A stretch of DNA of 64,000 nt, taken from contig CAWGMQ010000004.1 of NCBI GenBank assembly GCA_963823665.1, positions 1,920,001 through 1,984,000 of the forward strand, read 5' to 3'. Source of the stretch: an uncultured Planctomycetota bacterium. Its GTDB lineage: Bacteria; Planctomycetota; Planctomycetia; Isosphaerales; Isosphaeraceae. The position numbers were made by a program, and so were the translations under genes. The notes under the pieces are model-generated. The model had not been told where the DNA came from. It did not search any database and saw only the letters and a program-made list of their open reading frames with translations. Below are positions 1 to 30,191 of the stretch, one piece after another (position 1 is the stretch's first letter; each line of letters begins with the position of its first letter).

Positions 1-2436
1 CGCTCGAGGAGCTGATCGCCATTCTGCGTGAAACGTACTGCCGCACGATCGGCGTCGAGTTCATGCACATCCCGGACGCCGGTATCCGCAGGTGGCTGCT
101 CGACCGCATGGAGCCCAGACGGAACCGCCCCCAGCTCGACGCCAGGAAGAAGCGGCGGATCATCTACAAATTGAATGCAGCCGAGCTTTTCGAGACGTTC
201 CTGCAAGAACACTACGTCGGCCAGAAGCGGTTCTCGCTCGAGGGAGGCGAGATGCTCATCCCCATGCTCGATGCGGTTATCGAGCGCGCTGGCAGGATCC
301 GGGGTCCGGGAGATCGTCATCGGCATGCCGCACCGGGGCCGGTTGAACGTGCTGGCCAATATCCTCGATAAACCGTACGGCATGATCTTCAACGAGTTCG
401 AAGGCGACCACCTCCCCGAGACCGTCGGCGGTGACGGTGACGTCAAGTACCACCTGGGCTTCTCCGCCGATCACGTCACCTCCGACAAGCACACCATCCA
501 CCTCTCGCTGTCGGCCAACCCAAGCCACCTGGAGGCCGTCAATCCCGGTCGTCGAAGGTCGCGTGCGGGCCAAGCAGCGCCGGTTCAAGGACAAGGATCG
601 CCGCCTCGGCATCCCCGTGCTCATCCACGGCGACGCAGCCTTCGCGGGGCAGGGCCTCGTCGCCGAGACCTTGAACCTCTCGCAACTGCCGGGCTATCGC
701 ACCGGCGGAACGATCCACATCGTCGTGAACAACCAGATCGGTTTCACGACAGCCCCCACCGAAGGCCGGTCCACCCGCTATTGCACCGACGTCGCCAAGA
801 TGATCGAGGTGCCGATCTTCCACGTCAACGGCGAGGATCCGGAGGCGGTCGTCTACGTCGCCGAGCTGGCGCTCGATTTCCGCCAGACGTTCGGCAAGGA
901 CGTCGTGATCGACATGTTCTGCTACCGCCGCCACGGACACAACGAGGGCGACGAGCCGGCGTTCACCCAGCCGATCATGTGCGAGAAGATCAAGGATCGC
1001 ATCAGCATCCGCGAGCTCTACACCGAGCAGCTCGTCCTCTCCGGCGAGCTCTCCAGCGAGGAGGCCGAGACCATCGCCGAGATGTTCCCCGAGAAAATGC
1101 AGCAGGTGCTCGAGGAAGTCAAGCGCGGCGCCGGCGAGCCACAGCCCAACCGCGGCTTCAGCGGCGCCTGGTCGCGGCCTCGCCCCCAGCTTCTCATTCA
1201 CGCCCGTCGAAACCGGCGTCACCGATCGAAACGCTGCGAACGCTCACCGAAAAAGTCGTCGCCGTTCCCCCGGGCTTCTCGGTCAATCCCAAGCTCGCCC
1301 GGCTCCTCGCCGCCCGCCAGAAGACCTTCGAGGCCCGAGAGCCGCTCGACTGGGCCTTCGCCGAAACCCTGGCAATCGGCTCGCTCCTCTGGGAAGACAC
1401 CCCCGTTCGCTTGAGCGGCCAGGACAGCCGCCGCGGCACCTTCAGCCAGCGGCACGCCGTCCTGGTCGACACCAAGACCGAAGAGCGCTACATCCCTCTG
1501 AACCACCTCAAAGAAAACCAGGCGGAATTCTGCGTTTACGACAGCCTGCTCTCCGAAGCCGCCGTCCTCGGCTTCGATTACGGCTACTCCCTCGACGAGC
1601 CCCACATGCTCATCATGTGGGAAGCCCAGTTCGGCGATTTCGCCAACGGCGCGCAGGTGATCATCGACCAGTTCATCGCACCCGGCGAGTCCAAATGGGG
1701 CAGGGCCAGCGGCCTTGTCATGCTCCTGCCCCACGGCTACGAAGGGCAGGGGCCCGAACACTCGAGCGCACGCCTCGAGCGCTTCCTTCAGCTCTGCGCG
1801 GAAGAAAACATCCAGGTGACCGTCCCCTCCACGCCCGCGCAGTATTTCCACCTGCTCCGCCGCCAGGTCAGGCGCAGCTTCCGCAAGCCGCTCGTCGTCA
1901 TGACGCCCAAGAGCCTCCTCCGCCACAAGCAGGCTGTTTCTCCCCTCGATCAATTGACCGTGGGTCATTTTCACGATGTGATCGACGACCCGGCCGCCGC
2001 CCAGAACGCACGCCGCGTGCTCCTCTGCTCGGGCAAGGTCTACTACGACCTCGCCGCCCGGCGAGCAGCCGTCGCCGGCCAGCGCGACGTCGCCATCATC
2101 CGCATCGAACAGCTCTACCCCTGGCCGAGCGACCTCTTGAAGACCATCGTCAAGCGTTACGAGTCCGCCCGCGAATGGGTCTGGGTCCAGGAGGAATCTC
2201 AGAACATGGGAGCCTGGACGTTCGTCGCTCCGCGCCTGGAAGAGCTCCTCGGAGTGCCGGCGCAGTACGTCGGCCGCGACGCCAGCGCCAGCCCCGCCAC
2301 CGGATCGAAGCTCGTTCACGACCGCGAGCAGGCCGAGATCGTCGAAGCCGCCGTCGGCCTGGCCGTGCCTCACCTGGTCTCCGCCTGGCGCATTCAGCAA
2401 AAAGCCGGTAAGAGCGCCAAGCCGGGAGTGAGCTAA
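1..2436 (+). CDS. sucA: 2-oxoglutarate dehydrogenase E1 component (5' part outside window; split over frames by indels near ~295, ~548, ~1190)
   Basis: Motifs [93 protein letters not shown] across overlapping ORFs. Confidence 0.97.
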
Positions 2437-5150: not shown

Positions 5151-5589
5151 CCGAGCCCCGGCAGGGGGCGACATCATATAGCCCGGCGTGTAAACGCCGG
5201 GAACCATCGTGCGCCCACCCGTTCCATCTCTTCCGAGCCCCGGCACGGGGCGACAGCATACAGCCCGGCGTGTAAACGCCGGGAACCACCACGCGGCCAC
5301 CCACTCCATCTCTTCCGAGCCCCGGCACGGGGCGACATCATACAGCCCGGCGTGTAAACGCCGGGAACCACCACGCACGCCACCCGCTCGTTCTCTTCCG
5401 AGCCCCGGCACGGGGCGACATCATACAGCCCGGCGTGTAAACGCCGGAAACGACCACGCACACCACGCGCTCGTTCTCTTCCGAGCCCCGCTTCGGGGCG
5501 ACATCATATAGCCCGGCGTGAAAACGCCGGGAACGACCACGCGGCCGCCCGCTCGTTTTCTTCCGAGCCCCGGCACGGGGCGACATCAT
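5151..5589. repeat. Tandem array of ~82-83 bp REP/BIME-like units (5 full + 1 partial), each with two GC-rich hairpins
   Basis: Units start at 5151, 5233, 5315, 5398, 5481, 5563; conserved CCGAGCCCCGGCACGGGGCGACATCATACAGCCCGGCGTGTAAACGCCGGGAAC plus a more variable ~28 bp linker. Confidence 0.9.
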
Positions 5590-5666: not shown

Positions 5667-5755
5667 GGAGAGGTGGCTGAGTGGTCGATAGCGACGGTTT
5701 GCTAAACCGTTAAACTGGGAAACCGGTTTCGGGGGTTCGAATCCCCCCCTCTCCG
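5667..5755 (+). tRNA. tRNA-Ser(GCT), long variable arm, CCA not encoded
   Basis: Acceptor GGAGAGG/CCTCTCC, D-arm TGGCTGAGTGG, anticodon arm ACGGT-TTGCTAA-ACCGT, T-arm GGGGG-TTCGAAT-CCCCC. Confidence 0.97.
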
Positions 5756-7413: not shown

Positions 7414-7491
7414 GGGACTTGCCTCACTCATGCCGTTCGGCCGACCGGCGAGATGATCGAAGCTTGCTCCCCGAGAGGGCATTCGGATTTC

Positions 7492-8484
7492 ATGGCCACG
7501 GCAGAGCAACTCAAGGCACTGCTTCGGAGCTACGTCGATGAAGATGGGGATCAATTCCTCACCGTCTCGATGCAGATCGCGGCCCAGGCTGCGCGGCGCG
7601 GCCAAGGGAAGCTGGCCCAGGAACTCCGCGAGCTGATCGACGAAGCAAAGCGCCGATCCGCTCAGCCGTCGGTGGGCAAGTCCGTTCCGATTGCCCGCCC
7701 CGCCGGCGAACTTGCCGATCTGATACAGGCGAGCTACCCCAAAACTCAGCTCGTCGATATGGTCCTCGCCGATTCGGCGATGCAGTCGCTAGAACGAGTC
7801 TTGATCGAGTATCGACAGCAAGAGAAGCTGCGGTCGCACGGTATGTCGGCGCGGCGGAAGCTGCTCCTCGTCGGCCCACCCGGCTCCGGGAAGACCATGA
7901 CGGCGGCGGCACTCGCCGGCGAACTGAAGCTGCCGCTTCTCGGCGTCCGGCTCGATGGCCTCATCACCAAGTTCATGGGCGAGACGGCCTCGAAGTTGCG
8001 CCTTGTATTCGACGCGATGATACCGACGCGAGGCGTTTATCTGTTCGACGAGTTCGACGCGATCGGCGGCGATCGAGGCCGGCGGAACGACGTGGGCGAG
8101 ATGCGACGCGTGCTCAACTCGTTCTTGCAATTTCTCGAAGCGGACGACTCCGATTCCCTGATCCTCGCGGCGACCAACCACCAAGAGATTCTCGACCCCG
8201 CGCTGTATCGCCGTTTCGATGATGTTGTTCGCTACGGCCTGCCGGAGGCGGATCACATCGAACGGTTGGCAAAAAATCGCCTGAACATGTTTCGCCTCAA
8301 CCGTGTCCGGTGGAATGATGTCCGCGATGCCGCGACGGGGTTGAGTTACGCCGAGGTCGCTCGCGCATGCAGCGAAGCCGCCAAAACGGCGGTGCTCCGA
8401 GATTTGACGGACATCTCGACTGACCTATTGGTGAGTGCGCTCAAAGAGAGGTTGAGCATCACGTCGACAACCAACGCGGACTGA
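7492..8484 (+). CDS. ietA: AAA+ ATPase of the IetAS system
   Basis: Walker A GPPGSGKT, Walker B YLFDEFDAIG, ATNHQEILDPALYRRFDD; directly upstream of an S8 protease. Confidence 0.85.
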   Translation: MATAEQLKALLRSYVDEDGDQFLTVSMQIAAQAARRGQGKLAQELRELIDEAKRRSAQPSVGKSVPIARPAGELADLIQASYPKTQLVDMVLADSAMQSLERVLIEYRQQEKLRSHGMSARRKLLLVGPPGSGKTMTAAALAGELKLPLLGVRLDGLITKFMGETASKLRLVFDAMIPTRGVYLFDEFDAIGGDRGRRNDVGEMRRVLNSFLQFLEADDSDSLILAATNHQEILDPALYRRFDDVVRYGLPEADHIERLAKNRLNMFRLNRVRWNDVRDAATGLSYAEVARACSEAAKTAVLRDLTDISTDLLVSALKERLSITSTTNAD

Positions 8485-8492
8485 GAACCACG

Positions 8493-11042
8493 ATGACCAC
8501 GGATCGCCTTCCCCACCTCATCGTGGAAGGCTTCTTCACTACTGAGAAGTACACCGCCAAGCAGGGATTCGGCCCGGATTACCCCCTGCCGGCCCGCGAC
8601 CGCACCGCGCACGGCAATTCCGTCAAATCGCAACTCGAAAAGATCCGCGGCGAGAACGAAAAGAAACGCGGCAACGAGACCACCGACGACGAACCGGCAC
8701 CCATTTCCATCGAAGTCCGCGGCGAACCAGGCTACTTTCTGAACCTCGATAGCTTGGAGAATAAAGCCAAGGGAATCGAGGTAGCCTGCGTTCGCACGGA
8801 GCGCGACATCCAAATCGCCACGGTTCAGGTGCCCGAGGGGTCGCTCACGCATTTCTTGAAGGTCACGGAAAAGTACATCAGCGAGGACACGAAGGGCACC
8901 AGCAAGACTCCGCCGAAGCCCAAGCATCAAGACCTCATCGCCCGCGTGTCCGAACTTCGCCTTGCGACGCTTCGGTCGTTCTGGACCGATGATGAAAGCG
9001 ATTTCCCCGCCCAGACGCAGCAGATCTGGTGGGAAGTCTGGGTGCGAAAGCTGGGCGTTCAGAACATCTGGAATGCTTTCAGGGTCACTGCCGAGTCCAC
9101 TGGTGTTGGCCTCACCGTCGGCAAGGATACCATCGAATTCCCAGATCGGATTGTAGGCCTCGTCTTCGGCACGGCCGAGCAGTTGATGACGTCCACCGAG
9201 CTTCTCGACATGATCGGCGAAGTTCGACGAGCGAAAGAGAATCCCGCAGACTTCATTGCAATGACGCCGCAGGATCAGGCCGAGTGGGTGAACAACTTCT
9301 TGCCCAAAATCGAGCCGCCGCCGACCGACGCCCCGGCCGTTTGCTTGCTCGATGGCGGGATCATCACGAACCCTTTGATTGGTCCGGCCTTCTCGACCGA
9401 CGACGCGCACTGCTACGACCCGGACTGGCCGAAGGCGGATTCGCCGGAACGCCCCGTCCAACTCCGCGACGAACACGGAACAGAAATGGCCGGGGTCATT
9501 CTGTTCGGCTCCGAACTGGCCGAACTCCTCCAGGCCAACGCCGGTCATCGCCTGAGTCACCGATTGGAGTCGGCCAGGATTCTGCCGCCCCGGCCGCGCG
9601 AGAATGAACGCCGGCTCTACGGCGCGATCACCTCCCAGACCATCAGCCGGGTGGAGATCGCCCAGCCGAAGCGCAATCGCAACTTCTGCATGGCTGTTAC
9701 CACGGATGGAAAAGACCGTGGGAAACCTTCGTCGTGGTCAGGTGTCATCGACCAGATTTGCGGCGGAGTGATGGACAACAACCCCCGTCTCTTCTTCATC
9801 TCGGCCGGCAATTCCGATCCGAACCAGCGACATCAGTATCCCGACTCAAACGATACCGACAGCGTCCAAGACCCGGCCCAAGCCTGGAACGCCATCACAG
9901 TCGGTGCCTGCACGAGTCGCGCGCTCTTCGATCAGTCCCGATTTCCCGGCTACGAGCCAATCGCGCCTGTCGGCGACTTAAGCCCGTGCAGCACGACCTC
10001 GCTGCCGTGGGATAAGCCGTGGCCCTACAAGCCCGACATCGTCCTGGAAGGCGGCAACCAGATCGTCATCAAGGGGACGAACAACGTCATGGACCCCGAC
10101 GACATGGGCTTGCTCACGACGGCCCATGCGACAAGCGGCCGGTTGCTGGTTGGCTTCCGCGACACGAGCGCGGCCACGGCCCAGGCCGCCCGAATGGGAG
10201 CCATACTCCAGGCACAGTACCCGAAACTCTGGCCCGAAACGGTCCGAGCCTTGTTGATCCACTCGGCGGAATGGACCGAGCCAATGTGCCAAGTTTTCGG
10301 CGACAAGAAACGCGATCACATATCCCGCCTGCGTCGATATGGCTACGGCATCCCCAACATGGAGCGGGCGCTCTACTCGGCCAAGAGTTCGCTGACATTG
10401 CTCGTCCAGCAGAAAATCCAGCCCTTCACCAAGGAAGATGGCACGATCAAGACCAAGGACATGGGCATGCATTCGCTGCCCTGGCCGAAAGAGCAACTCT
10501 CAGAACTCGGTTCGCAAACCGTCACGATGCGGGTGACGCTTTCCTACTTCATTGAGCCGAAGCCCGGCCGCCGCGAGGGCTTCGTCAAGCATCGGCACCG
10601 CTACCTGTCCCACGGCTTGCGGTTCGAGGTCAAGCGGCCCACGGAGACGGAGGACCAGCTTCGCAAGCGCGTCAGCCAGGCGGCTCGCGACGAAGAGGAA
10701 GATTTCAAGGCCGTCGGCGACACCGCCGGCTGGGAACTCGGGCCGCAACTCCGCACGCGCGGCTCGATTCACTCCGATTGGTGGACAGGGACCGCCGCCG
10801 ACCTGGCCAACTGCGGGCTGATCTCGGTCTATCCCGTCAGCGGTTGGTGGCGGGAATCGAAAGGCAACGACTGGTCGAAAGAAGCCCGCTACGCTCTCGT
10901 GGTCACAATCCGCACGAATCCGGTACCTGTGGCGGTGAATTTATTCACGCCGACGGAAGTCGATCTCTACACGCCCGTCGAAGCGACGATCAAGACGGCC
11001 GTGCCGACGCAAACGACAATTGAAATTGAGGACACCGAGTGA
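8493..11042 (+). CDS. ietS: S8 subtilisin-like serine protease of the IetAS system
   Basis: Triad LLDGG / EHGTEMAG / DTSAAT, oxyanion SAGN, NAITVGA, KPDIVLEGGN, YGYG; no signal peptide; 8 bp after the ATPase gene. Confidence 0.85.
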   Translation: MTTDRLPHLIVEGFFTTEKYTAKQGFGPDYPLPARDRTAHGNSVKSQLEKIRGENEKKRGNETTDDEPAPISIEVRGEPGYFLNLDSLENKAKGIEVACVRTERDIQIATVQVPEGSLTHFLKVTEKYISEDTKGTSKTPPKPKHQDLIARVSELRLATLRSFWTDDESDFPAQTQQIWWEVWVRKLGVQNIWNAFRVTAESTGVGLTVGKDTIEFPDRIVGLVFGTAEQLMTSTELLDMIGEVRRAKENPADFIAMTPQDQAEWVNNFLPKIEPPPTDAPAVCLLDGGIITNPLIGPAFSTDDAHCYDPDWPKADSPERPVQLRDEHGTEMAGVILFGSELAELLQANAGHRLSHRLESARILPPRPRENERRLYGAITSQTISRVEIAQPKRNRNFCMAVTTDGKDRGKPSSWSGVIDQICGGVMDNNPRLFFISAGNSDPNQRHQYPDSNDTDSVQDPAQAWNAITVGACTSRALFDQSRFPGYEPIAPVGDLSPCSTTSLPWDKPWPYKPDIVLEGGNQIVIKGTNNVMDPDDMGLLTTAHATSGRLLVGFRDTSAATAQAARMGAILQAQYPKLWPETVRALLIHSAEWTEPMCQVFGDKKRDHISRLRRYGYGIPNMERALYSAKSSLTLLVQQKIQPFTKEDGTIKTKDMGMHSLPWPKEQLSELGSQTVTMRVTLSYFIEPKPGRREGFVKHRHRYLSHGLRFEVKRPTETEDQLRKRVSQAARDEEEDFKAVGDTAGWELGPQLRTRGSIHSDWWTGTAADLANCGLISVYPVSGWWRESKGNDWSKEARYALVVTIRTNPVPVAVNLFTPTEVDLYTPVEATIKTAVPTQTTIEIEDTE

Positions 11043-15976: not shown

Positions 15977-16402
15977 TCACTTCACCGAGGCGCCACGAAT
16001 CTTCAATACGGACTTTGCAACAACTTTGTCCTTCGTAGCACCCGAAGATTTGGGTAGCGCTGGTCGAGACGTCGGGCGGTTTTTGAGCCCCATTGCCGGG
16101 CCGGCTGCGGCTTTTTTTTTCGCCCGCTTCGCGGCTTTCTGCTTGTCGTATACCTTGCGTAGCTGCCAGTCGGATTCCAAGCCCAACCACATGGTCGCCG
16201 ACACGCCGAACGCCCGCTGTAGCTGCAACGCAGTCTCGGCCGTGATGCTTTTCTTTCCGTTGATGATTGCGCCCACGATCTGGAGCGGACGGCCCATCTT
16301 CTCGGCAAGTAGCCTCTGCGTCCAACCGCGCTCTTTTAACTCATCCCGGATAAGATCGCCCGGGGGGAACGCCCCAAATACCTGGTTCCATTTGACAGTC
16401 AT
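15977..16402 (-). CDS. higA: HigA-family antitoxin (XRE HTH) with Lys/Ala-rich C-terminal tail
   Basis: PPGDLIRDELKERGWTQ...IINGKKSITAETALQL...WLGLESDW; downstream of the toxin. Confidence 0.9.
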   Translation of the reverse strand: MTVKWNQVFGAFPPGDLIRDELKERGWTQRLLAEKMGRPLQIVGAIINGKKSITAETALQLQRAFGVSATMWLGLESDWQLRKVYDKQKAAKRAKKKAAAGPAMGLKNRPTSRPALPKSSGATKDKVVAKSVLKIRGASVK

Positions 16403-16418
16403 CGCGCCCCCTCGGATC

Positions 16419-16715
16419 TCAGTGGTAGTCTTCTATGCCGGTCAAGACAAGTCGGTTACCCTCGTCTGTCGACTCGATTTGAAAAATCAAACGGAATTGG
16501 TCGTTGATGCGCATCGAGTACTCGTACTTACGCTTCCCTTTCAACTTCTCGAAATGAAGTCCTTTGACCGCTCGCAGATCGTTCTCGTTCTCAGCTCTCA
16601 CGATCAGACGTAGCACTTTTAAGAAAGCTTTGACGACTTCCTTGCTATACCCACCGGTAAAATCGGGATCGTCCTCAATCCCTTGCAACGTCTTGTCCTC
16701 ATGTCGGTACAACAT
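16419..16715 (-). CDS. higB: HigB-family (RelE-like) toxin
   Basis: GLHFEKLKGKRKYEYSMRINDQFRLIF...IEDYH. Confidence 0.92.
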   Translation of the reverse strand: MLYRHEDKTLQGIEDDPDFTGGYSKEVVKAFLKVLRLIVRAENENDLRAVKGLHFEKLKGKRKYEYSMRINDQFRLIFQIESTDEGNRLVLTGIEDYH

Positions 16716-17050: not shown

Positions 17051-17534
17051 GGCACAGGCTCAGCGACTGGTAAACTGCGCGGAGATCTCGTACACATGGC
17101 GTTGGTTCATCGCAACGGCGGAACGTACACCCACCGATGCGTTCGGCGGAATGTAAGGGTTACCTCGGAATACGGGGGAAGGGGCGTACACGCCTTCCTC
17201 ATCTCGCGGCTCGAGGCCATCGAGCTCGTCAGAACGCTCCTTTGAGCCAACCTGCCCGAATCTGTAGATTCCCGACTGCTGGTTCGACGATACGGCGGTC
17301 CGACGATTGCATGCTTCCGCCCGAACTGACCGGAGCGTAGCACCTCCGACGACGTCACGGTCGGCGCCCTGCGCGAGTCGGCTGCGTCCCAGCCCGGCCT
17401 GATGCTTCCGTCTTAAGCTCGCCAGAATGGAACGCCCGAGTCGAGAAGCGCCCGGCTCGCCTTTCGGTCGAGGGCCAGCTAAAGATAGACTGTAACGCGG
17501 AACGGTTTGGCGGGTGGCCACCTGTCAGATCGAG

Positions 17535-17600
17535 CGAACCCGGCGAGTCGTGGCATCCCCTGTCCGTGACTGCCGGGTTCGGCCCGACTCACAGGGGAAA
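17535..17600 (+). promoter_or_regulatory. Hairpin/pseudoknot leader whose loop is complementary to the RBS (copy 1)
   Basis: Stem 17535-17553/17564-17581; loop CATCCCCTGT pairs with ACAGGGGA (17591-17598) before ATG 17605. Confidence 0.55.
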
Positions 17601-17604
17601 TAGA

Positions 17605-18498
17605 ATGTCGGCAGGAAACGAGCCCGACCGGCCGAGTTTTACATTCAAGTATGACTTCGAGCCGCCACAGACAATAGTTGTGACCCGCGAAATGTTGGAG
17701 CGGGAATCCGCGCTCCAAAACATACGTGACTGGGTACCGGACCCTAAAACGCTAACTGTCGGCCTATTGGCACGCCTGCTTTACGACATGGACAAGCTTT
17801 GGCCCGACCCGACGCAACGCGTCCCAGACGCGTACGTCCGCCGAAGCGTCGTACTCAACGAATGCGCCGCATACGGTGATTTCGTCCGATGGGCAAACAC
17901 TGTGCTTGGTCGTAATGGTGATTTTGAAGCAGCGAAGGAACTGCAATCACAACTTGCTCGCCGCCTTAAGAGGACGTTTGCGGAAATTGACTTGATGCCC
18001 CTCGGTGACGCCGTGCGGACAATCCTTGAGCCCGAGGATGCTTGCATCGAGTCCGCCGACCGGATGAGCACGGCAACGAATGCCGCAGAGCTTGTCTATC
18101 AAAACGCTAGCAATCTAGCTCCACATGATCCGTGGCTTCGTGACAAACTGAAGTCGCTCGTTACGCAAACGCCGCCCGTCTTGGACGCAGGCATAGACGC
18201 GAAACCAGCGGGACGGGCGACGGAAGTCGCACCTGTCCCGGCGCCAGCCAGTCCACCAGGTGACCCCGCCTCCCGCGCCGTGGCTGCCGCATATCAACTT
18301 CGGAAAGGAGGCAAGTCGGTGACCATCCGCGCCGTTTGCAGAGCCGCAGGGGTGGATCGCAACAACCTGGCCGACAACCACCCTGAAATCATCCAGCTTA
18401 TCCGTCAACTTGGCGAACCGGATCGTAAGCCACCTTCCGGAACGCGCGACCGCCGGACTGGGGACTTGCAAGCCGTAGACGATTCAGAAGACGACTGA
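17605..18498 (+). CDS. Protein with unique N-terminus and conserved C-terminal HTH-like domain (module copy 1, gene A)
   Basis: C-terminus GDPASRAVAAAYQLRKGGKSVTIRAVCRAAGVDRNNL...RDRRTGDLQA is paralogous to 23065-23841. Confidence 0.75.
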   Translation: MSAGNEPDRPSFTFKYDFEPPQTIVVTREMLERESALQNIRDWVPDPKTLTVGLLARLLYDMDKLWPDPTQRVPDAYVRRSVVLNECAAYGDFVRWANTVLGRNGDFEAAKELQSQLARRLKRTFAEIDLMPLGDAVRTILEPEDACIESADRMSTATNAAELVYQNASNLAPHDPWLRDKLKSLVTQTPPVLDAGIDAKPAGRATEVAPVPAPASPPGDPASRAVAAAYQLRKGGKSVTIRAVCRAAGVDRNNLADNHPEIIQLIRQLGEPDRKPPSGTRDRRTGDLQAVDDSEDD

Positions 18499-18587
18499 CC
18501 CCGCCAATTTACCCCGCCAGGCAAAACCGTTTTCGCCCTGGAAAACAACCGGTTTCACGACCCCGCCATCCAGCCACGACCCCGCCA
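18498..18587 (+). repeat. Four ACCCCGCCA direct repeats between genes A and B
   Basis: Copies at 18498, 18511, 18560, 18579; degenerate equivalents at ~23841-23930. Confidence 0.75.
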
Positions 18588-18649
18588 CCCGCGCGATAGG
18601 TCATGAAGCCGCGAAGTGCGGCATTCAAAACCCAACCGTGGAGTGGATC

Positions 18650-19243
18650 ATGTCACGCAGAAAACCGCCAGATACGTTTCGGCCCAAGGAATCCCCGATC
18701 GTATGGTTCCGGGAAATGCTGCTCGCCGTTGACCGTGGCGATTTTCATCGCGCCGCTGAGTCGCAACGCCAACTTGACCGCCTCGGGTGGCAAGTGACCC
18801 AGAAGAGAACCCGCCAGTTCATCGTCGCATACCTCTGGCAGGGAGAGCAGGTATTGTCCGGCGAACTCGAGCATGTCCGCAGATCGCGTGACGAACTCAG
18901 CGAAGAGAATCTGGACTCATCAGATGTGCACAAGGTGCTCAAGCCATGGCTGCCCGACCTGGTCCGAGCGATGCGAGACGCGACCGACCGCTATCAAATG
19001 CGGCGCACTCGCGGTTTGCAGCACCAACTGCAAGAGGCATTGGGGTCGCCTGTCCTTAAAGAAGAACACGTCAACGGAGCGCAGAAGGAGGCACCAACCA
19101 TCTCGATACGGTTGATGGACGGAATGAATTGGGTCGAAAAAATTTCGCGTTTAGTAGAGCATATGATGAAAGCCGTGGGCGTCGTCACGAAAGCCATAGA
19201 GTATTTTTCAGGGACCAGCTCGCCGTCCCCACCTTCCAAGTGA
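18650..19243 (+). CDS. Hypothetical protein (module copy 1, gene B)
   Basis: 197 aa; same length as and clearly paralogous to 23993-24586 (RGDFxRAAESQRQLDRxGW...SPSPPSK). Confidence 0.75.
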   Translation: MSRRKPPDTFRPKESPIVWFREMLLAVDRGDFHRAAESQRQLDRLGWQVTQKRTRQFIVAYLWQGEQVLSGELEHVRRSRDELSEENLDSSDVHKVLKPWLPDLVRAMRDATDRYQMRRTRGLQHQLQEALGSPVLKEEHVNGAQKEAPTISIRLMDGMNWVEKISRLVEHMMKAVGVVTKAIEYFSGTSSPSPPSK

Positions 19244-19642
19244 TCAAACCGTTAAACGCCGCCAGGCGCGGCCGTCTACATTTTGATGCGTGCCTCCGAG
19301 GTCCCCAATAGGCCCACATCCAAGGGGGAGGTTATGATTTGATCGATCACCATCGCGTTCGCATATTAGAGCTCGGCTCGTCGAGGGGTCACCCGCTCAC
19401 TGGCGGAACGGCGCAGAGGAGGTACCCACGCTTTTCAGCTCGGAACACAAGATCATTAATCCAGTGGCCGAGGCGAGAGGTCACGTTATACTCTGAACAA
19501 GAACCAATCTGCGGCGCCGAAGGCGCAGTCCAATGGCTCGCCTTGGCGGCGGACCGAATTCGACGGTCGCGTCCGAGAAGTCAACAGGCCGTCTGATATC
19601 CGATCTCTAGGAATCGTCCGTACCGCGAATCGCGAGACTCCC

Positions 19643-20925
19643 ATGAAAGAACCCAGGCGCAACTCACGCGATCCTACACTCGGACAGAAAGTAGCGCATC
19701 CGATGGTTAGACAAACGAAGCGGGTGCAACTTACCAGCGACGATTGGTCGCGCCTCTCCGCTTCAGATTTCGAACGTCTCTGCGCGGATATGCTGCGTTC
19801 GTTCGGCTTTCAGAACGTTCAGTTGCTGGCGGGACCCGGTGACAAGGGGCGCGATATCTTATGTGACCGGACCGTTCAGTTCGGACCCGGAATTAGCACC
19901 ACGCTTTCATGGATTGTTCAGTGCAAGCACACAGTCGGCGGACTTTCGAAACACGTCGTCTACAAAGATCTGGTCAAAGCCAAGGAACACAGAGCGGACT
20001 TTTGGTGGCTCCTCACAACCGCCGACGTTACACCCGCCCTCTATGACTGGATTCGCGCCATCGAACGTACGGAGTTTCCATTTCGCATGGGCTGCCTTGA
20101 TCGGCGAGCCCTCGATAGCGCGATGCTCGAGCTCCCGCGCCTCCTCGGCAAGTATTTTCCGTTCGAGCTTGGTCCGCAGGAACGAGTGTGGGCGGAAGTG
20201 ATGTCGGTCATGTCAAACGGCCGTTACGTGCAAGCGCTGGAAACGCTGCAGGCAAATGACGATGGATTACATCCCAGAACTTCCTATCTCATTGCTTGCT
20301 GTCTCTCGATGCTCGCGCACGACGCTAATTCGCAACCGAACCTTCAGAAGGCGTTTCGTGCTTTGGAGGAAGCAAACGCTCGTGGTTACATTCCATATAT
20401 GCAGCAGCTGGTGGGATGGCCTGAAAACAAGTGCCGCGCCCAGGTAAGGCTGGATCCAGAGCTAACCCTTCTCCTTCAGTCTGACCGCACGCGATTTCTA
20501 GCTCTGTTCGGCGCGGACACGAGTGACGGGGACCGGGAGATGTGTCTAGCGGCCGACACTTTAGTGCAAGTTGAGGAAGCCGAAGAGCGCCCAATCGGTC
20601 AGCTGCGGCCTGGGACCAGACTTCTCACGCAGATTGCGGATGTCCCAGAGTTTGGAGAGGTCGCGATGGTACGGCAACAGCAGGTGGCGGGCACGTTCCT
20701 CATTAACAACAGCGTAAAAGCAACAGCCGCTCATCGTTTTGCAACCATTGACGGCTGGCGAAGTGCCGAAGACTCCGTATTGGTGACGTGCTCATTACTG
20801 CCGATGGCTGGCAAGGCATTTCGAGTATCAATTACGAGCCAAATCTCGCGCTGGTCTGTCAAATGACAGTGTTGGGCCAACCCTGCTTTTACGCGAATGG
20901 TTACCTCGTTCACAATGACAAATAA
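19643..20925 (+). CDS. Mrr-like PD-(D/E)XK restriction endonuclease + TPR-like region + C-terminal Hint domain (1 bp frameshift at ~20773)
   Basis: FERLCADML...GPGDKGRDI...VQCKH; YLIACCLS...DPEL; Hint CLAADTLV...ATAAHRF...GWRSAED then shifted frame RIGDVL...FYANGYLVHNDK*. Confidence 0.8.
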
Positions 20926-20984
20926 ACCTCCCATCCACACTCTCAGTGTGTGCTTCCCAACCGGTTCAAGACCAAGTAGCCCAC

Positions 20985-21434
20985 ATGACTGTATCGTCTT
21001 ACGCTAGTTTGCCCATAACGAGCACGGGTGAGCCGCATTGGCGGGTGTGTTTGCCGGCGGATCTGGAAGCAAGAGTGCTTGATCGTCTTCAACTCACGAA
21101 CCCGGCCAAGGCAATCGATGCGTTCGCGCACGACTATCCCGAATTCGCCATGGCTATCCGAGAACGGGCAGCGCAACTTCAACGAATCGACGGAGTCATG
21201 GATCTGCCGGCTGCGGCGTGCGTGCGGCTGGACGGCCAGAAACCACTGCCACCACCGTTCGTGCCTCCGCGTGCCGGGCGCCGAACGGCGACTTCGCCAA
21301 TTCCCGCATTGCGAACCAAGCACTGTCACTGGTACACACGCGAAGGGGCAGCATTCTCCCCATGTAATACTCCACATTTTTTGATTAGATCCCAGTCCCG
21401 CGAGCTAGTCTCTCCCGGTTGCGGGACTGATTAG
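20985..21434 (+). CDS. Hypothetical protein downstream of the nuclease-Hint gene
   Basis: ORF starts 60 bp after the corrected stop; no recognised motif. Confidence 0.4.
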   Translation: MTVSSYASLPITSTGEPHWRVCLPADLEARVLDRLQLTNPAKAIDAFAHDYPEFAMAIRERAAQLQRIDGVMDLPAAACVRLDGQKPLPPPFVPPRAGRRTATSPIPALRTKHCHWYTREGAAFSPCNTPHFLIRSQSRELVSPGCGTD

Positions 21435-21987
21435 TCTTTCCGACAGCGATCGCGTCGCTCATCCCGAATTTACCCTACGTGTTCATCGGATCATGATTCA
21501 AGCCGCAAAGGACCGAGGATCGAAGAATAAGACTCATGTGAAGCGCAAGACCAGATCCCGAGCGTAGCAATTGCTATCTCCAACACCGTGGGGTAAAATA
21601 AAGAAAGTACGGGGGCTCATCTGGAAGGACTCGCCCCCGATGCTTCGCGCGTGTCGGTCGGGCACAGATGCTATGCGAAGCGTATCTTCCCAGCTCCTGT
21701 CATCGCGTGATATTGTCCGCGAGACAGGTTGAAATAAAACCCGCATTCGTAACAAGCCACGAGCAATTTCCTTTCGAGTACGTTCCCGACTGCGGCGACT
21801 CGCCGTGACAAGTAAGGCGCTGCAGTCAGGAAAAGCCGAAGGAAACGAACACGCGCCCTTGGGGACATTCCCCGGGGGCCGTGTCGTTATATCAGAACCA
21901 GTTCGGCTATGAATTAATCGGCCCGAACCGCTCATAATCACTGAAGAACTCTCTGATTATTGCCCTCCCGCACTTCGTTGAATCAAC

Positions 21988-22549
21988 TCACTCATTCTTG
22001 GCGATCCTGAAAAATGCACCCTGACGATCAAAGTCTTTTCGCTGTGTCATAAGAGCTTTAAATCGTTTGCTGAGATTCGCGACCGTTTTGAACCGTGGAT
22101 CATTTCGTTCGGCAATTCTTGCCACATCACTAGGACTCAACAAAGCCCCATTTGCATCTCGAAGAATCCGCTCCGCGACGTCGTCGAGCTGCAAGTTTTC
22201 GCCTCGTTCGGTGCTAATTCGGGACACAGCCTCATACAACCGTGATTGAGCCTTCTGGGGACGTTTGTCTAATGGACGTTTCCGACCAACTTCATCGCTA
22301 TTGTTGTTGGGCGCCTTAGTCCCTGAAAAAGCATCGAATACAGCCTGCATCGCTGACCGCAAGTTACCCAGCACCTTTCGTTTACGATCGACACTAGATC
22401 GGACCGAGTCGCGCGCCTTGCAGGTCAGCGATTTGACTCTCAAGCTCATCGATTTCCTTCTCATCGGCATCGATTTGTGTCTCGAGCCGAAGGATCTGTT
22501 TCTCAATCTCATCCAAATTTGGGACCGTCTCATCCAAGTTTGGGGCCAT
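21988..22549 (-). CDS. Coiled-coil + possible winged-helix protein (frameshift near 22400)
   Basis: MAPNLDETVPNLDEIEKQILRLETQIDADEKEIDELESQIADLQ continuing in another frame to ...LDDVAERILRDANGALLSPSDVARIAE. Confidence 0.55.
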
Positions 22550-22970
22550 TTCAATGCTCCCCAGATCATCCGATGTGCAGCGCATCAATACGTTCAACGG
22601 ATCGTAACACATTGACCTGCGCGAATCAATACCCAGGTCCGATGGACCGAATCCTATGCGTGACCGTAATAATTACGTATATAATTTTATAGATGTGTAG
22701 TAACGGATCAGCGAACTTATTGGATATACTGTTGGTAACCCTGTCCTGTCGTATAAATCCCGATCCAACCACAAACCGGGTCGGCTTCGATGACGGCCGA
22801 CGTGCTTCCCACCTCAGCATCGCGAGCATCAATCAACGTAGGCGATTATTAATCGCGCGGATTTCACTGCACGGGTGGGTCATTTACCGGCAACTGACCT
22901 TTAGTTCACGGCATCTTCGACATTCCATTCACGGACCGCCATGGTGTACCCTTGAACTGAGCGGGTTGAA

Positions 22971-23063
22971 TCACCGCTTGCAAGCGGTGAATCACATCGC
23001 AGACCTCGTCGGTCGATTTCCCCTGTTCGGCCGACAAGTTCCGACCCGCGATTCAGGAGAAAG
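22971..23063 (+). promoter_or_regulatory. Perfect 20 bp palindrome plus hairpin/pseudoknot leader over the RBS (copy 2)
   Basis: TCACCGCTTGCAAGCGGTGA at 22971-22990; stem 23008-23016/23027-23035, loop TTTCCCCTGT pairs with CAGGAGAAA (23054-23062). Confidence 0.55.
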
Positions 23064-23064
23064 C

Positions 23065-23841
23065 ATGGCCAAACTTCCGTTGCCTGATGACCTAGTCGCT
23101 CTACGCGCAATCATCGAAGACGCCGCACTGATCGCGTCGGAGTTTCTAGCCGAGCGCGATCAACTCCGCTTGTACCACCGGTTGAGGCGTGAACTGGGAG
23201 CTTTTGATCAGCAGGAATTCGACCGACTGCTTGAGCAGAATCCGGCCAAGGCCCAGCGCGTACTTGATGACCTTCAGGCACTTCAGGACGCTGACCGCAG
23301 ATTCGTGGCAATGAACCGTCGACCAAAGACGCCCTGCATTCGCGTCAGGCCGTACGTGGACTTGCCGACCGACCCCAGAAGCAGGGTGAAGTTCTTGCTA
23401 TCATCGTCGGACCCTTTTCTCGACGTGCCGGGTCCATTCATTGAAGCCATCGTTCAAGTACACGATGAAGCGGCAGCCAAATTGGCAGCGCTCTCTCAGG
23501 CCAAGCAACACGCAACCGGTCTGCACCCGCCGACTTTGGGCAAGAGCAAGGCTCCAGAGCCCACAGCCGCCAACTCCTCGGGAAGCAAGTTCAAGTCGCG
23601 AGGCGATCCCGCGTCCCGTGCCTTGGCCGCCGCGCTCGCACTCCGGAAGGCCGGCAAGCCGGTAAGTGTCCGCGCCGCCTGCGAGGCCGCCGGCGTGGAT
23701 CGCAAGAATCTCGCTGCCAAGCACCCCGAGGCCATCGAGTTTATCGAGCGCCTTGCGGAACCGGATCGACAGCTTCGAACGGGAATGCGCGACCGCCGGA
23801 CCGGGAATCTCGAAGCGCAGGACGATTCAGACGAGGATTGA
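23065..23841 (+). CDS. Protein with unique N-terminus and conserved C-terminal HTH-like domain (module copy 2, gene A)
   Basis: C-terminus GDPASRALAAALALRKAGKPVSVRAACEAAGVDRKNL...RDRRTGNLEA; AGGAG RBS. Confidence 0.75.
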   Translation: MAKLPLPDDLVALRAIIEDAALIASEFLAERDQLRLYHRLRRELGAFDQQEFDRLLEQNPAKAQRVLDDLQALQDADRRFVAMNRRPKTPCIRVRPYVDLPTDPRSRVKFLLSSSDPFLDVPGPFIEAIVQVHDEAAAKLAALSQAKQHATGLHPPTLGKSKAPEPTAANSSGSKFKSRGDPASRALAAALALRKAGKPVSVRAACEAAGVDRKNLAAKHPEAIEFIERLAEPDRQLRTGMRDRRTGNLEAQDDSDED

Positions 23842-23992
23842 CCCAGCCACTTCATCCCTCCGCTCGAAATCGGTCGCCCCTGGAAAAGAAGGGGGCCGAC
23901 GAGCCTGCCACCCCGCCAAGACCCCACCACACGCCGGATAGCTCATGAGGCCGCGACGTGCGGCACTCTGAATCCTGACCGCGGAGTCGGTC

Positions 23993-24586
23993 ATGTCCCG
24001 TACAAACCCGCTGGCCGACCTCACGCTCGATGAATTTCCGATCGCATGGCTCGCGGAAATGCTGATTGCCATCAACCGAGGCGACTTCGAGCGTGCGGCG
24101 GAATCTCAACGCCAGCTTGACCGTTTCGGGTGGCGAGTGACCCACAAAAGAACCCGCCAATTCACCGTCGGATACCTCTCGCAGGAAGGGCAGGTTTCTT
24201 CAACCGAACTCGAGCAGATCCGCAGATCGTGCGACGAACTCAGCAAAGAGATTCTGGCGTCCTCAGAATTGCCCAAGTTGCTCAAAACATGGCTTCTCGA
24301 CCTGGCCCGAGCGATGCGACACGCGATCGACCGCTTTCAAGTCCAGGGCACTCGCGGTCTGCGACACCAACTGCAAGAAGCATTGCGGTCGTTTGTGCTT
24401 AACGAGCAACACCCCAAGGCGGTGCGGAAGGAGTCACCGACCATCTGGATGAGGTTGCTGGCTGGAGTGGAGCGGGTCGAAAAAGTGTCGCGTTTAGTAG
24501 AGCACGTGATGAAAATCACAGCGATCACGATGAAAGCGATAGATTATTTCTCAGGAATCAACTCGCCGTCACCTCCTTCCAAGTGA
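23993..24586 (+). CDS. Hypothetical protein (module copy 2, gene B)
   Basis: Paralogue of 18650-19243. Confidence 0.75.
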   Translation: MSRTNPLADLTLDEFPIAWLAEMLIAINRGDFERAAESQRQLDRFGWRVTHKRTRQFTVGYLSQEGQVSSTELEQIRRSCDELSKEILASSELPKLLKTWLLDLARAMRHAIDRFQVQGTRGLRHQLQEALRSFVLNEQHPKAVRKESPTIWMRLLAGVERVEKVSRLVEHVMKITAITMKAIDYFSGINSPSPPSK

Positions 24587-24700
24587 TCCAACGGGTTTTC
24601 GGGCAATCTGGCAAACAAGGTTGCTGCAAGATGACCGCCCCTTCATAATCGGCTTGTGTACTGTGTCATGTCTGGACAAAGGTCTAGGAACCTATTCTCC

Positions 24701-25360
24701 ATGAGCATCATCTTGGGACACGGCGTCTATAGCCTGACCGAGGCTGCGCGACTCACGCATTTAAGGCCGCAACGCGTCCGGGAATGGTTTGCGGGTCGGG
24801 GCGGTGCTCGCGGGGTCGTCTTTCGGAGCGACTATCAGCCTGTCGAAGGCGATCGTGCAATCAGTTTCCTTGACCTCGTCGAACTGTTCGTGGCTGGCCA
24901 GTTGCGCGATCACGGAGTTTCGCTGCAAGCGTTGAGGAAGGTCTATAAGAGACTGGAGAAAGATCTAGATACCAGACATCCGTTTGGCAGACGAGAGATT
25001 CTAACCGATGGCAAAAACGTCTTTGTTCTCGGCCTGGATGACAAAGGGGCCGAAGAAATGGTCGAGGTTCTCTCGCGTCAAAAGGTGTTCGTTGAAATCC
25101 TGCTGCCATTCCTGAAGAGAATTGATTACGACTCCGCGACACGGCTCGCGAAAAAGTGGTTCGTAACGGATCAGGTCGTTCTCGACCCGACGATCTGCCT
25201 CGGCAAGCCTATCATCGAGAAGGCTGGAATCGCCACCGCGATCCTTGCCGCCTCGTTTCAAGCCAATGACCAAGACGCTGGAATTGTTGCGGACTGGTAC
25301 GGCGTGCAGCAGAGCCAGGTTCTGGCGGCGGTCGAATTTGAGCGAAGCCTGGCCGCATGA
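24701..25360 (+). CDS. MerR-like HTH + DUF433 antitoxin (VapB45-like)
   Basis: YSLTEAARL, ISFLDLVEL, GVSLQALRK, VLDPTICLGKPII...VADWYGV...AAVEFE. Confidence 0.85.
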   Translation: MSIILGHGVYSLTEAARLTHLRPQRVREWFAGRGGARGVVFRSDYQPVEGDRAISFLDLVELFVAGQLRDHGVSLQALRKVYKRLEKDLDTRHPFGRREILTDGKNVFVLGLDDKGAEEMVEVLSRQKVFVEILLPFLKRIDYDSATRLAKKWFVTDQVVLDPTICLGKPIIEKAGIATAILAASFQANDQDAGIVADWYGVQQSQVLAAVEFERSLAA

Positions 25361-25779
25361 AGTTCTTCTTCGATCGCAATATGTCTGTCTACCTCGCGAG
25401 AATGATCGGCGCTCTGGAGCGCGACCACACGATTAGACATCACGACGAAGACCCGCGATTTGAGACCACGACTCCCGACACAGAGTGGATCTCCGTACTG
25501 GGCAAGGATCGTCCTACATGGGTGGCGATAAGCGGTGACGGTCGCATTCTCCGCAACAAGGCCGAACGCGCCGCGCTTCGTGAAGCAAAACTGACGTTCT
25601 TCTGCCTCTCAAAGCAGTGGATGAATGTCCCGAAATATGAATTTGCTTGGAAGTTCGTGAAGGTCTGGCCCGACATTCTCGAACAGGCAAAACTGATGTC
25701 TTCGTACCAGTGCGTCTTCGAGGTAACGGGAGGTAGATCGCTGAAGATAGACGTACGTGAGCGATGGCCTTTGGGGTGA
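25357..25779 (+). CDS. PIN-like toxin (VapC45-like)
   Basis: MKFFFDRNM, PDTEWI, ISGDGRILRNKAE; ATGA overlap with the DUF433 gene. Confidence 0.85.
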   Translation: MKFFFDRNMSVYLARMIGALERDHTIRHHDEDPRFETTTPDTEWISVLGKDRPTWVAISGDGRILRNKAERAALREAKLTFFCLSKQWMNVPKYEFAWKFVKVWPDILEQAKLMSSYQCVFEVTGGRSLKIDVRERWPLG

Positions 25780-28625: not shown

Positions 28626-28684
28626 ACGCTTTCCACCACGCCGTCGGACCATCAGGAAGCATCGCGCTTCGCTTGAAACTGGAT

Positions 28685-28853
28685 GATCTGCCTCGGAATG
28701 CCCTTCGTCGAGAAAGCCGGAGTCGCAACCGCGATTCTTGCCGCCTCCTTTCAAGCCAATCAAACAGGACGCTGGAATTGTTGGCGATCGGTACCGCGTG
28801 CATGAAAGCCAAGTTTTGGCGGCCGTCGAATTTGAGCGAAGCCTGGCTGGATG
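28685..28853 (+). pseudogene. Remnant 3' end of a second DUF433 antitoxin gene
   Basis: DNA similar to 25192-25360 (shared GTCGAATTTGAGCGAAGCCTGG); contains an indel. Confidence 0.8.
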
Positions 28854-28865
28854 GGGTCAGAGAAC

Positions 28866-30191
28866 TCAATCCGCGCCTTGCAATTTCTCCAAAAGATTGG
28901 CCGAAGGAGTAAATATCCACGTTTTACCGATCTTCCGTTTATCGACCAGCCCACGGTTCGCGAGATCCATGAGGTCGCTGCGCGCGGTTTCGTAGACGAC
29001 CCGATGGCTATTGCGATGCGACTCGACGGTGTAACGCTGGCCCGGATGGCGCAAGGCATGACCGATAAGCTCGCGCTGGCGATGGTTCAGGAATGTGAAT
29101 CCTTGAAGTTCCTTCTCAGCCTCGCTTAGCTGTTTCACGTGACGATCGATGTACTTGTAAAGCTCGCTGATCGCGCTGCTGACGATGTTCGCATGGTAGA
29201 GAATGAAGTACGTAAGGTCGTTGGCATCGGTCTCCGAATACAGAAAAGCCTGGGCATACTTCACCGGAGCCATGTGGATTATTTTTGATATCGTTATCAA
29301 CTCAAACAGCGAGTATCCGCGCTTCAGCATCGACCAGTAGAATAACGCTCGCGCGGTCCTCCCATTTCCATCGACGAAGGGGTGATCGTAAGCGAGCCAG
29401 AAGTGAAGAATGATCGACCGAACCAGAGGATGAATGAACCCGCCAGGTGTCCGGCCGTTCGCGAACTTACACATTTCCAGCGCACGTCTACTCAACTCAT
29501 CGGCTGGCGGAGGGACATGAAGCACCTGCCCCTCAGCGTCCTCCACCCGGATGTTCTCGTCGGACCGACGAAATCGTCCGGCCGCTGATGGGTTATCCAA
29601 TGTCCCATCGGTGATGAGCTGGTGGATCTCGAGTATCAGGTCGATGCTGAGATCTTGCTCCTTGATTTCCAGTATGTGCTCCATCGTTCGATAGTTGTTG
29701 AAGATCATCCTTTCGCTGCGGTTTCGCGGCGCGCGGCCTTCTTGAATCATTTTCTTGGCCACCGCCCGCGTGGTGGATGCCCCCTCCAACTGGCTGGACG
29801 TGATCGATTCCTCGATCAACGAACGCACAAGATATCGATCCCTGGTTGCCGGATTGATTACTGGTTCCGGTTGCTGGATGACACCGTGCGCCAGCGAATC
29901 GACGTGATGCAACCATTCCAGTAGCGGATCGACAACGTTAAATGTAAAGCTGGCGCCTTGTTTATCGTTGAGCGGGACAACCTTCGCCCCGAGCCGCCGC
30001 ATTTTGAGACCAAGCCACCACTCGCGGTGAGACAGCCCGTTCGGCGGTGTCAAATGTCGGAGCTTATCCCAGTGACGGTATCGGCCCCGGACGCTTGGCT
30101 CGACGATTTGTGTCATGATTCGCGCGAGGTTCTCCGGCGCAATGTTTTGCCACATCGCCTGTTGCGACGGCGGAGCGGAAGGGATCTTCAT
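28866..30191 (-). CDS. Fic family AMPylase with N-terminal inhibitory motif and C-terminal HTH
   Basis: HPFVDGNGRTAR; SSQLEG (S/T-xxx-E-G/N); YETARSDLMDLANRGLV. Confidence 0.93.
   Translation of the reverse strand: MKIPSAPPSQQAMWQNIAPENLARIMTQIVEPSVRGRYRHWDKLRHLTPPNGLSHREWWLGLKMRRLGAKVVPLNDKQGASFTFNVVDPLLEWLHHVDSLAHGVIQQPEPVINPATRDRYLVRSLIEESITSSQLEGASTTRAVAKKMIQEGRAPRNRSERMIFNNYRTMEHILEIKEQDLSIDLILEIHQLITDGTLDNPSAAGRFRRSDENIRVEDAEGQVLHVPPPADELSRRALEMCKFANGRTPGGFIHPLVRSIILHFWLAYDHPFVDGNGRTARALFYWSMLKRGYSLFELITISKIIHMAPVKYAQAFLYSETDANDLTYFILYHANIVSSAISELYKYIDRHVKQLSEAEKELQGFTFLNHRQRELIGHALRHPGQRYTVESHRNSHRVVYETARSDLMDLANRGLVDKRKIGKTWIFTPSANLLEKLQGAD

Follow-up and report, generated by a model that had tools for sequence, protein, structure and literature searches.

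What are the two similar leaders that precede two paralogous genes in a stretch of planctomycete DNA, and what might they do? The stretch, called the window here, is 64,000 nucleotides (nt) long (GenBank assembly GCA_963823665.1, contig CAWGMQ010000004.1, positions 1,920,001 to 1,984,000; an uncultured member of the Isosphaeraceae); the genes and their leaders are both referred to as A1 and A2. A sequence-only reading of the window had proposed that each leader is a cis-regulatory RNA, a pseudoknot in which a hairpin loop sequesters the ribosome-binding site (RBS) of its own gene. We believe that the RNA is real. Judged by its sequences, the leader is a previously uncatalogued structured RNA family of about 110 nt, with more than 100 members in mobile elements of planctomycetes. 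As to its role, we propose tentatively that the leader may count its own copies by forming a protein-free, two-fold RNA dimer, which would be held together by a palindromic kiss and two reciprocal helices between a loop and a Shine-Dalgarno (SD) segment. On the same tentative footing, such a dimer would shut off the master regulator of a satellite-like element, using two independently variable pairing codes in a family that is class-wide.

Each of the two leaders contains a short and a long hairpin (fold z -2.7 each against shuffles). As had been claimed, the long hairpins have 10-nt loops that end alike and are complementary to the RBS of the gene behind them, at 8/8 positions in A1 and 8/9 in A2. 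A descriptor demanding a hairpin loop with at least 7 Watson-Crick pairs to an SD-like segment preceding an ATG was passed by one of the 1635 ATGs in the window, that of leader A1; A2 misses it through its single mismatch. The palindromes described as preceding the hairpins do exist, the one in A2 being a perfect 20-mer, while the one at 17509-17526 is self-complementary at 14/18 positions with the rest G-U as RNA; they are, however, not separate features, since both belong to the leader RNA itself as its stem-loop P1. The coding N-termini are indeed unrelated: the A1 and A2 proteins are alike in their C-terminal ~80 residues only (62% identity).

The C-terminal domain shared by the gene A proteins has 170 relatives among representative proteins, those with names being Isosphaeraceae (Planctomycetota) records, e.g., Tautonia and Singulisphaera, and among 120 other host-family genomes, 13 contain it. 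Ahead of these relatives, and of the small gene that follows, the DNA has the same layout with other loop words. A covariance model seeded with two leaders separated 17 leaders from the background (E <0.001) among 29 loci and was rebuilt from those 17; both window copies were included, and the score of leader A1 is accordingly given by construction. The model holds nested pairs only, with neither a loop-SD pair nor a palindrome rule. It found 93 matches in 56/121 host-family genomes, four of them in the window's own genome, as well as 15 copies in other families (matches in 14/115 genomes from six further families of the class). In 150 further genomes drawn from across the phylum, most of them of other classes, it found none. 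In viral contigs, the protein queries had no match, and the 58 pattern matches were all due to chance, none of them scoring with the covariance model. The same leader precedes many unrelated regulator-like genes, so the idea that the element is tied to gene A has to be given up. A tandem of leader modules like that in the window, with a spacing of about 2 kb (401-515 and 2420-2536), was also seen in another genome, at locus L163.

The RNA, which the sequence-only reading did not recognise, proved to be a conserved structured leader without a counterpart in Rfam: Rfam 15 had no gathering-level match on the leaders in the window or in 15 homologous loci, and a search of either leader with E up to 10 returned nothing relevant, only one chance match to an archaeal small RNA far below threshold. 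The alignment comprised 93 matches, one from a metagenome locus and the others being 92 of the 93 found in the family; dropping 4 near-duplicates left 89 distinct copies, 73 of them outside training. They share a three-way junction of a closing stem P0, a hairpin P1 and a hairpin P2, and then an SD-bearing tail. That structure is kept without sequence conservation, as had been stated, is right about the structure but needs qualifying for the sequence: the closing stem (CGGG...GCCCG), in which CGGG with CCCG is nearly invariant across the aligned leaders, and a CG at the base of P2 are conserved.

Pairing is found in 90.3% of the cells of the aligned leaders, two-sided changes in 35/36 pairs, and covariation amounts to 0.62, vs 0.18 for shuffled and 0.06-0.09 for slid pairs, all counted on an alignment that is fitted to the model and hence biased towards its structure. 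RNAalifold applied to a plain MAFFT alignment recovered P0 alone, with the stems out of register; the fold counts therefore rest on the model-fitted alignments. The loop-SD and palindrome tests given below are independent of them. G-U exceeds A-C in all stems (91:31 in P1, 180:35 in P2 and 62:15 in P0), which indicates an RNA on the leader strand. The dimensions vary little: P1 is 25-27 nt long in 82/89 copies, a P2 strand measures 19.7 +/- 1.1 nt, the P2 loop is mostly 8 nt, and the largest one-sided interruption of P2 is at most 2 nt in 77/89.

In the 25 nt upstream, 83/89 homologues have a TAnnnT box (3-9/89 in control windows), which ends mostly 6-8 nt before P0; this spacing of the -10 box predicts a transcription start at the base of P0. 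At the other end, an ATG follows the paired tail segment within 20 nt in 84/89 copies, mostly after 5-9 nt, and for this reason the in-frame upstream starts GTG 17566 and ATG 22693 were rejected in the window. No U-run of at least 4 occurs in the 20 nt after P0 in any copy (0/89), i.e., there is no intrinsic terminator.

Tested on the homologous leaders, as the earlier reading had suggested, the loop-RBS pairing does co-vary. The P2 loop can form at least 6 Watson-Crick pairs with its own tail in 80/89 copies and at least 7 in 69/89; the former count is 65/73 for the non-training copies and 12/15 for those of other families (mean 7.40 vs 4.02). Cognate pairs average 7.21 vs 4.30 for non-cognate ones, and 0/100000 permutations reach the cognate mean, although such permutation counts overstate the significance because the homologues are related. 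Despite this relatedness, the number of distinct loop words (74 among the 89 copies) implies many independent compensations. The paired tail segment overlaps an SD-like word in 74/80. What survives of the "RBS-sequestering pseudoknot" is the conserved pairing between loop and RBS; that this pairing is intramolecular is not established, the closing stem P0 having been missed in that proposal.

The loop of P1 shows a regularity of another kind. Its central four bases are self-complementary in 85/89 copies (GGCC, UGCA, UCGA, CGCG or GAUC) and in 14/15 of the other-family copies; eight weaker-scoring homologues picked by eye added the cores CAUG, AAUU, AGCU and UUAA, one of the eight being imperfect. 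Even-length loops are self-complementary in 80/83 cases, vs a mean of 28.4 (maximum 44) with shuffled columns, and their middle two bases are GC in 70, CG in 9, AU in 1 and non-complementary in 3. Adjacent bases are unable to pair in one chain, so a P1 centre that switches in this manner is the signature of an intermolecular kissing loop. In the accessible text of Kretsch et al. 2025 (PMC12286853), covariation of adjacent bases is likewise said to indicate intermolecular pairs, and the L9.3 loop of the ornate, large, extremophilic (OLE) RNA, which switches between GGCC, GAUC and AGCU, forms an intermolecular bridge according to cryo-EM. Where the core has two A-U pairs or stacks more weakly, the flanking U-A pair is kept in 36/39 cases, vs 21/40 for GC-only cores, as is expected with selection on total kiss strength. 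We consider it likely, and well supported by these counts, that the P1 loops of two molecules kiss each other. We regard it as nearly certain that selection acts on the fold and on both pairings, and that the leader is real and new.

A palindrome in this position could also be a DNA operator or a cruciform just past the promoter, bound by a dimeric protein, with only the P2-SD pairing acting at the RNA level. P1 indeed lies roughly between +9 and +35 relative to the predicted start and is a perfect 20-bp palindrome in A2. However, its stem sequence is free to vary with compensation and shows the G-U excess over A-C already given (91:31); moreover, the same cores stand before unrelated C-terminal domains and are mixed within 10/12 multi-member clusters of downstream proteins. 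A core that does not track the type of the downstream protein argues against an operator, and we find this explanation very improbable.

It remains to ask which SD segment the P2 loop would meet, its own or that of a partner. The paired tail segment begins 1-9 nt after P0, and P2 joins P0 without a linker in the model alignment. The reach was estimated from the rise per base, which gives crude plausibility sums and not three-dimensional models: with P0 formed and stacked straight on P2, the loop reaches its own segment in 0/80 copies, and with P2 bent back in 6-19/80. A coarse two-fold dimer, sketched as a P1-P1' helix between two antiparallel P0/P2 rods, closes in 55-68/80, each loop then lying 1-10 angstrom (median) from the partner's tail. 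Since the own RBS is out of straight cis reach while P0 is formed, a symmetric dimer is favoured over a cis pseudoknot. We presume that a reciprocal dimer in which each leader masks the other's SD is the best mechanism and would give it an even chance of being right; a loop-SD pairing between molecules, as it implies, is moderately supported.

The proposed course of events is the following. The leader would be transcribed as the 5' end of the regulator mRNA, and two copies would kiss via their self-complementary P1 loops; each P2 loop would then pair with the SD segment of the partner, and translation of both would be blocked. With the SD open in the monomer and closed in the dimer, the output of the regulator would drop as the leader concentration rises, and the regulator would be capped under strong transcription of the element or at a high copy number.

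All four copies in the window's genome have CCCCUGU in the P2 loop; the P1 core GGCC is common to A1 and copy L137, and UGCA to A2 and copy L135. The A2 loop pairs with the SD of A1 at -16.3 kcal/mol vs -8.3 with its own. Co-resident copies have the same P1 core in 10/49 pairs vs 1248/3867 pairs from different genomes, and compatibility at both contacts is commoner among them (6/49 vs 129/3867 cross-genome pairs). The higher, not lower, compatibility of co-residents argues against a role in exclusion or immunity. Nor do the compatibility counts support a strict incompatibility of co-resident elements, which was also considered. They leave room for cross-silencing of intact elements by orphan leaders.

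These figures bear on a different reading, in which the leader is freed as a small RNA by processing or pausing and acts in trans, either on new transcripts or on a related element that comes in; there would be two contacts, as the P4 CI RNA and IsrK make on their own transcripts, and the variable loops would be immunity codes. The paired 5' and 3' ends of an RNA starting at the predicted +1, the satellite-like context and the better pairing of the A2 loop with the SD of A1 all agree with such a molecule, as does the diversity of the codes, with 74 different loop words, no fewer than 5 P1 cores, and only 32/3916 pairs that are mutually compatible at both contacts. On the other hand, the lack of a U-tract after P0 (0/89) leaves it without an intrinsic terminator, cleavage at the end of P0 would strip the mRNA of its SD, co-resident copies show no lower compatibility than random pairs, and no Rfam model of the C4, CI or IsrK type matches. 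We hold the release of a small RNA to be improbable.

Several points weigh against the reciprocal dimer, among them the roughness of the reach estimates, the caveats attached above to the permutations and fold counts, and the compatibility of co-residents. P0 is metastable, its probability exceeding 0.5 in 42/89 copies (0.03 in A1, 1.0 in A2), and once it opens, the loop comes within cis reach of its own SD in 59-76/80. The length of P2 is weakly correlated with the spacer (rho 0.26, p 0.02), which fits cis reach equally. The own tail is the best or tied-best partner for just 39/89 loops, because the CCCC/GGGG core is common to many, and the loop-SD helix has a mismatch in window copy A2 and in L137. 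Finally, the gene A domain, which is taken to be that of a regulator, is only weakly similar to a TetR-type helix-turn-helix (HTH; profile E 0.0018, Foldseek E 0.99 against PDB). It should be added that frameshifts in the sucA and lpd frames (window 63-2436 and other housekeeping genes) suggest long-read errors, and single mismatches in the window, including that in the SD helix of A2, therefore need confirming.

Some of these points suit a two-state switch in cis: P0 formed would leave the SD free, and P0 open would let the P2 loop fold onto its own SD as a long-range pseudoknot. The balance would be set by P1 kissing, a protein or a helper-phage factor that stabilises P0, so that dimerisation could even activate translation. 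The metastability of P0 together with its nearly invariant sequence, the adequate reach with P0 open and the positive, if weak, correlation of P2 length with the spacer speak for this switch, and any cis pairing would give strict loop-SD covariation. It requires, however, a linker of 7-15 nt nearly fully stretched along ~20 bp with few interruptions, and the self-complementary P1 loop is left unexplained by the switch alone. We regard the cis switch as possible but unlikely, and the reciprocal dimer as the account to be preferred. The features of the window are collected in Table 1.

Table 1. Coordinates of the leader modules and associated features in the window
Feature	Position	Strand	Remarks
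Predicted -10 box TAGACT, leader A1	17486..17491	+	
Leader RNA A1	17496..17607	+	full three-way junction and SD tail up to the start codon; covariance-model training member
P0 of A1	17497-17502 with 17582-17587	+	weak in A1, probability 0.03
P1 hairpin of A1	17503..17532	+	self-complementary loop UGGCCA at 17515-17520
P2 hairpin of A1	17535..17581	+	anti-SD loop 17554-17563, CATCCCCTGT, 3' end TCCCCTGT
SD-containing segment of A1, ACAGGGGA	17591-17598	+	8/8 complementary to P2 loop; duplex -14.7 kcal/mol
Gene A1	17605..18498	+	297 amino acids, start ATG 17605; N-terminus unique, C-terminal four-helix domain, likely HTH
Predicted -10 box TACCCT, leader A2	22947..22952	+	
Leader RNA A2, whole	22960..23067	+	strong P0, 22961-22968 with 23042-23049, probability 1.0
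P1 hairpin of A2	22971..22990	+	perfect 20-mer palindrome; loop UUGCAA at 22978-22983
P2 hairpin of A2	22999..23042	+	anti-SD loop 23017-23026, TTTCCCCTGT, 3' end TCCCCTGT as in A1
SD-containing segment of A2, CAGGAGAAA	23054-23062	+	8/9 to own loop; duplex -8.3 kcal/mol
Gene A2	23065..23841	+	258 amino acids, start ATG 23065; N-terminus unique, C-terminal domain as A1
Intergenic direct repeats, ACCCCGCC x4	18496..18605	+	ahead of gene B promoter region; candidate sites of the gene A product
Gene B1	18650..19243	+	197 amino acids; N-terminus of the satellite "small gene" and a long C-terminal extension
Gene B2	23993..24586	+	197 amino acids, 61% identical to B1
Broken fragment of the gene upstream of the leader in intact element L051	17096..17200	+	tblastn 60% over 35 amino acids, E 2.6e-7

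The genes behind the leader are diverse, with 68 downstream proteins falling into 62 N-terminal and 42 C-terminal clusters. Many of the C-termini are HTH-like by eye; Pfam gave weak HTH matches in just 3/52 scanned proteins and, in these 52, no metabolic or transport theme that would point to a ligand. Pfam has no family for gene A. Its C-terminal domain has four helices in the predicted fold (pLDDT, the predicted local distance difference test, 72), and Atlas matches are under 0.9; the domain is likely an HTH, though the assignment is weak. Direct repeats follow gene A in 16/17 loci examined; in the remaining one, window copy A2, they are degenerate. Two clusters of direct repeats of 7-8 nt were noted after gene A (window 18496-18605; L004-L047), and the repeat word seems to vary along with the putative recognition helix. 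It is tempting to propose, if with considerable reserve, that the gene A product might bind these repeats and through them govern the downstream operon for excision and replication. Gene B is the small gene of the satellites (~65 amino acids) lengthened to 197; the frame is kept in both copies and one further relative of 197 amino acids occurs elsewhere, which suggests that the long form may have a function. The small gene, too, has a hairpin in its leader in some elements (GCCGC...GCGGC type, after gene A in L006, L032 and L035, and at about 1400-1450 in L068), and one such hairpin passed the loop-SD descriptor; it is possibly a second, smaller motif.

Eleven loci were viewed at 18-20 kb: a tyrosine integrase is found in 9, all 9 beside a transfer RNA (tRNA) gene, a clear primase or helicase family in 8, and an HTH_17 gene in several. 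The whole element at L051 consists of cargo, leader, gene A, small gene, HTH_17, primase-AAA, integrase and tRNA. One locus of the window's genome, L191, has a small terminase and a capsid gene; its segment 6789-17256 resembles the phage-inducible chromosomal islands that form capsids (cf-PICI), with tRNA-Pro, integrase, leader, short regulator, Prim-Pol/DUF3987, small terminase and capsid.

The two modules of the window are alike over ~1 kb at 76% (18258-19249 vs 23601-24592). Around them, tblastn with 13 element proteins found no integrase and no primase, only one fragment of 35 amino acids, which assigns a satellite origin to module 1. Both copies in the window are orphan regulatory modules, situated in a tRNA-linked island of defence and toxin-antitoxin genes. 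Other genes seen in this island are a HigBA-like pair (15977-16715), an Mrr-type nuclease with a weak Hint tail (19643-20866), a DUF433 and PIN pair (24656-25779) and a Fic protein (28866-30191); the 3' end of the DUF433 gene is duplicated over 166 bp at 84% (25189-25353 vs 28682-28847). At 7453-11042 (+), a subtilase S8 gene comes after an AAA ATPase gene, a layout like that of IetAS-type toxin-antitoxin or defence pairs. Four tandem Acido-Lenti-1 matches from Rfam were observed at 5154-5531 (-), between the lpd gene and a tRNA (5667-5755).

A structured RNA family of more than 100 members with unusually clean covariation is a find in itself. If the dimer is true, the concentration of its own leader would determine how much an mRNA is translated, with neither a protein nor a separate small RNA, and natural RNA homodimers would gain a direct regulatory function. 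It would also be the first handle on the regulation of satellite-like elements in Planctomycetia, and the swappable loop codes would offer small, programmable and orthogonal parts for feedback control.

Among known systems, the preQ1 and SAM-II riboswitches and the rpsO operator have the SD buried in a pseudoknot. The leader resembles them in a hairpin loop that is complementary to the SD, with covariation, and differs in its stem of ~20 bp, very short linker and extra self-complementary hairpin; besides, it has almost no invariant core outside P0 and the P2 base, and no association with metabolic genes. The satellites known as PICI and cf-PICI have an integrase at a tRNA, an excisionase-like HTH gene and a primase in a compact element. 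Homologues of the leader occur in comparable tRNA-integrated elements with a tyrosine integrase, an HTH_17 excisionase-like gene and a primase, whereas the window copies have neither integrase nor primase. Among the papers listed by a literature search, none mentions Planctomycetota alongside the PICI or cf-PICI satellite terms.

The phage antisense RNA C4 pairs with targets in its own transcript and restrains replication genes. The leader has no match to Rfam covariance models of the C4 or CI type, and for an upstream target of the C4/CI type the -10 spacing leaves no transcribed room, although no search aimed at such a target was made. Rows for the C4 RNA of P1/P7 (Rfam RF01695) are given in the accessible part of PMC2864571. 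The P4 CI RNA, according to the accessible text of PMC4825925, is encoded in a leader, from which it is processed; it pairs with seqA on its upstream side and with seqC on its downstream side, causing termination; the same text describes IsrK of prophage Gifsy-1, the terminated short isoform of which activates translation of a prophage regulator in trans. As far as these sources go, the leader is like P4 CI and C4 in being an RNA of a phage or satellite operon leader whose loop is complementary to a site of its own transcript; unlike P4 CI, it targets the SD, 1-9 nt beyond the junction, its second contact is self-complementary and the RNA starts at the predicted +1. With IsrK, so far as described there, it would share action in trans on its own mRNA and a regulator of a mobile element, but it lacks a terminator (0/89), its predicted partner is a second full leader and its predicted effect is repression.

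Catalogues of RNA motifs did not yield the leader, as judged from the main text of PMC5737381 and PMC11109978 and from the main text and supplement of PMC2864571. The Rhodopirellula-1 motif (Weinberg 2010), for which no Rfam accession is listed, has a single outer stem with an insert of 1-71 nt and differs by eye, on the three rows and consensus text given in PMC2864571. We found no description of a self-silencing dimer switch for a bacterial mRNA in a search that left the subscription literature largely outside, so that a prior report is possible. Palindromic kissing-loop homodimers as such are described, in the accessible text of PMC7357161, for the dimerization initiation site (DIS) of HIV-1 and the oskar 3' untranslated region (UTR). 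The closest likeness, within what the accessible texts state, is to OLE L9.3, which also has a six-nt loop whose self-complementary core alternates among palindromes, GGCC, GAUC and AGCU included. OLE, HIV-1 DIS and oskar are a large non-coding RNA, a viral genome and a eukaryotic 3' UTR, respectively; compared with what these texts present, the leader differs in being a bacterial 5' leader with an anti-SD arm.

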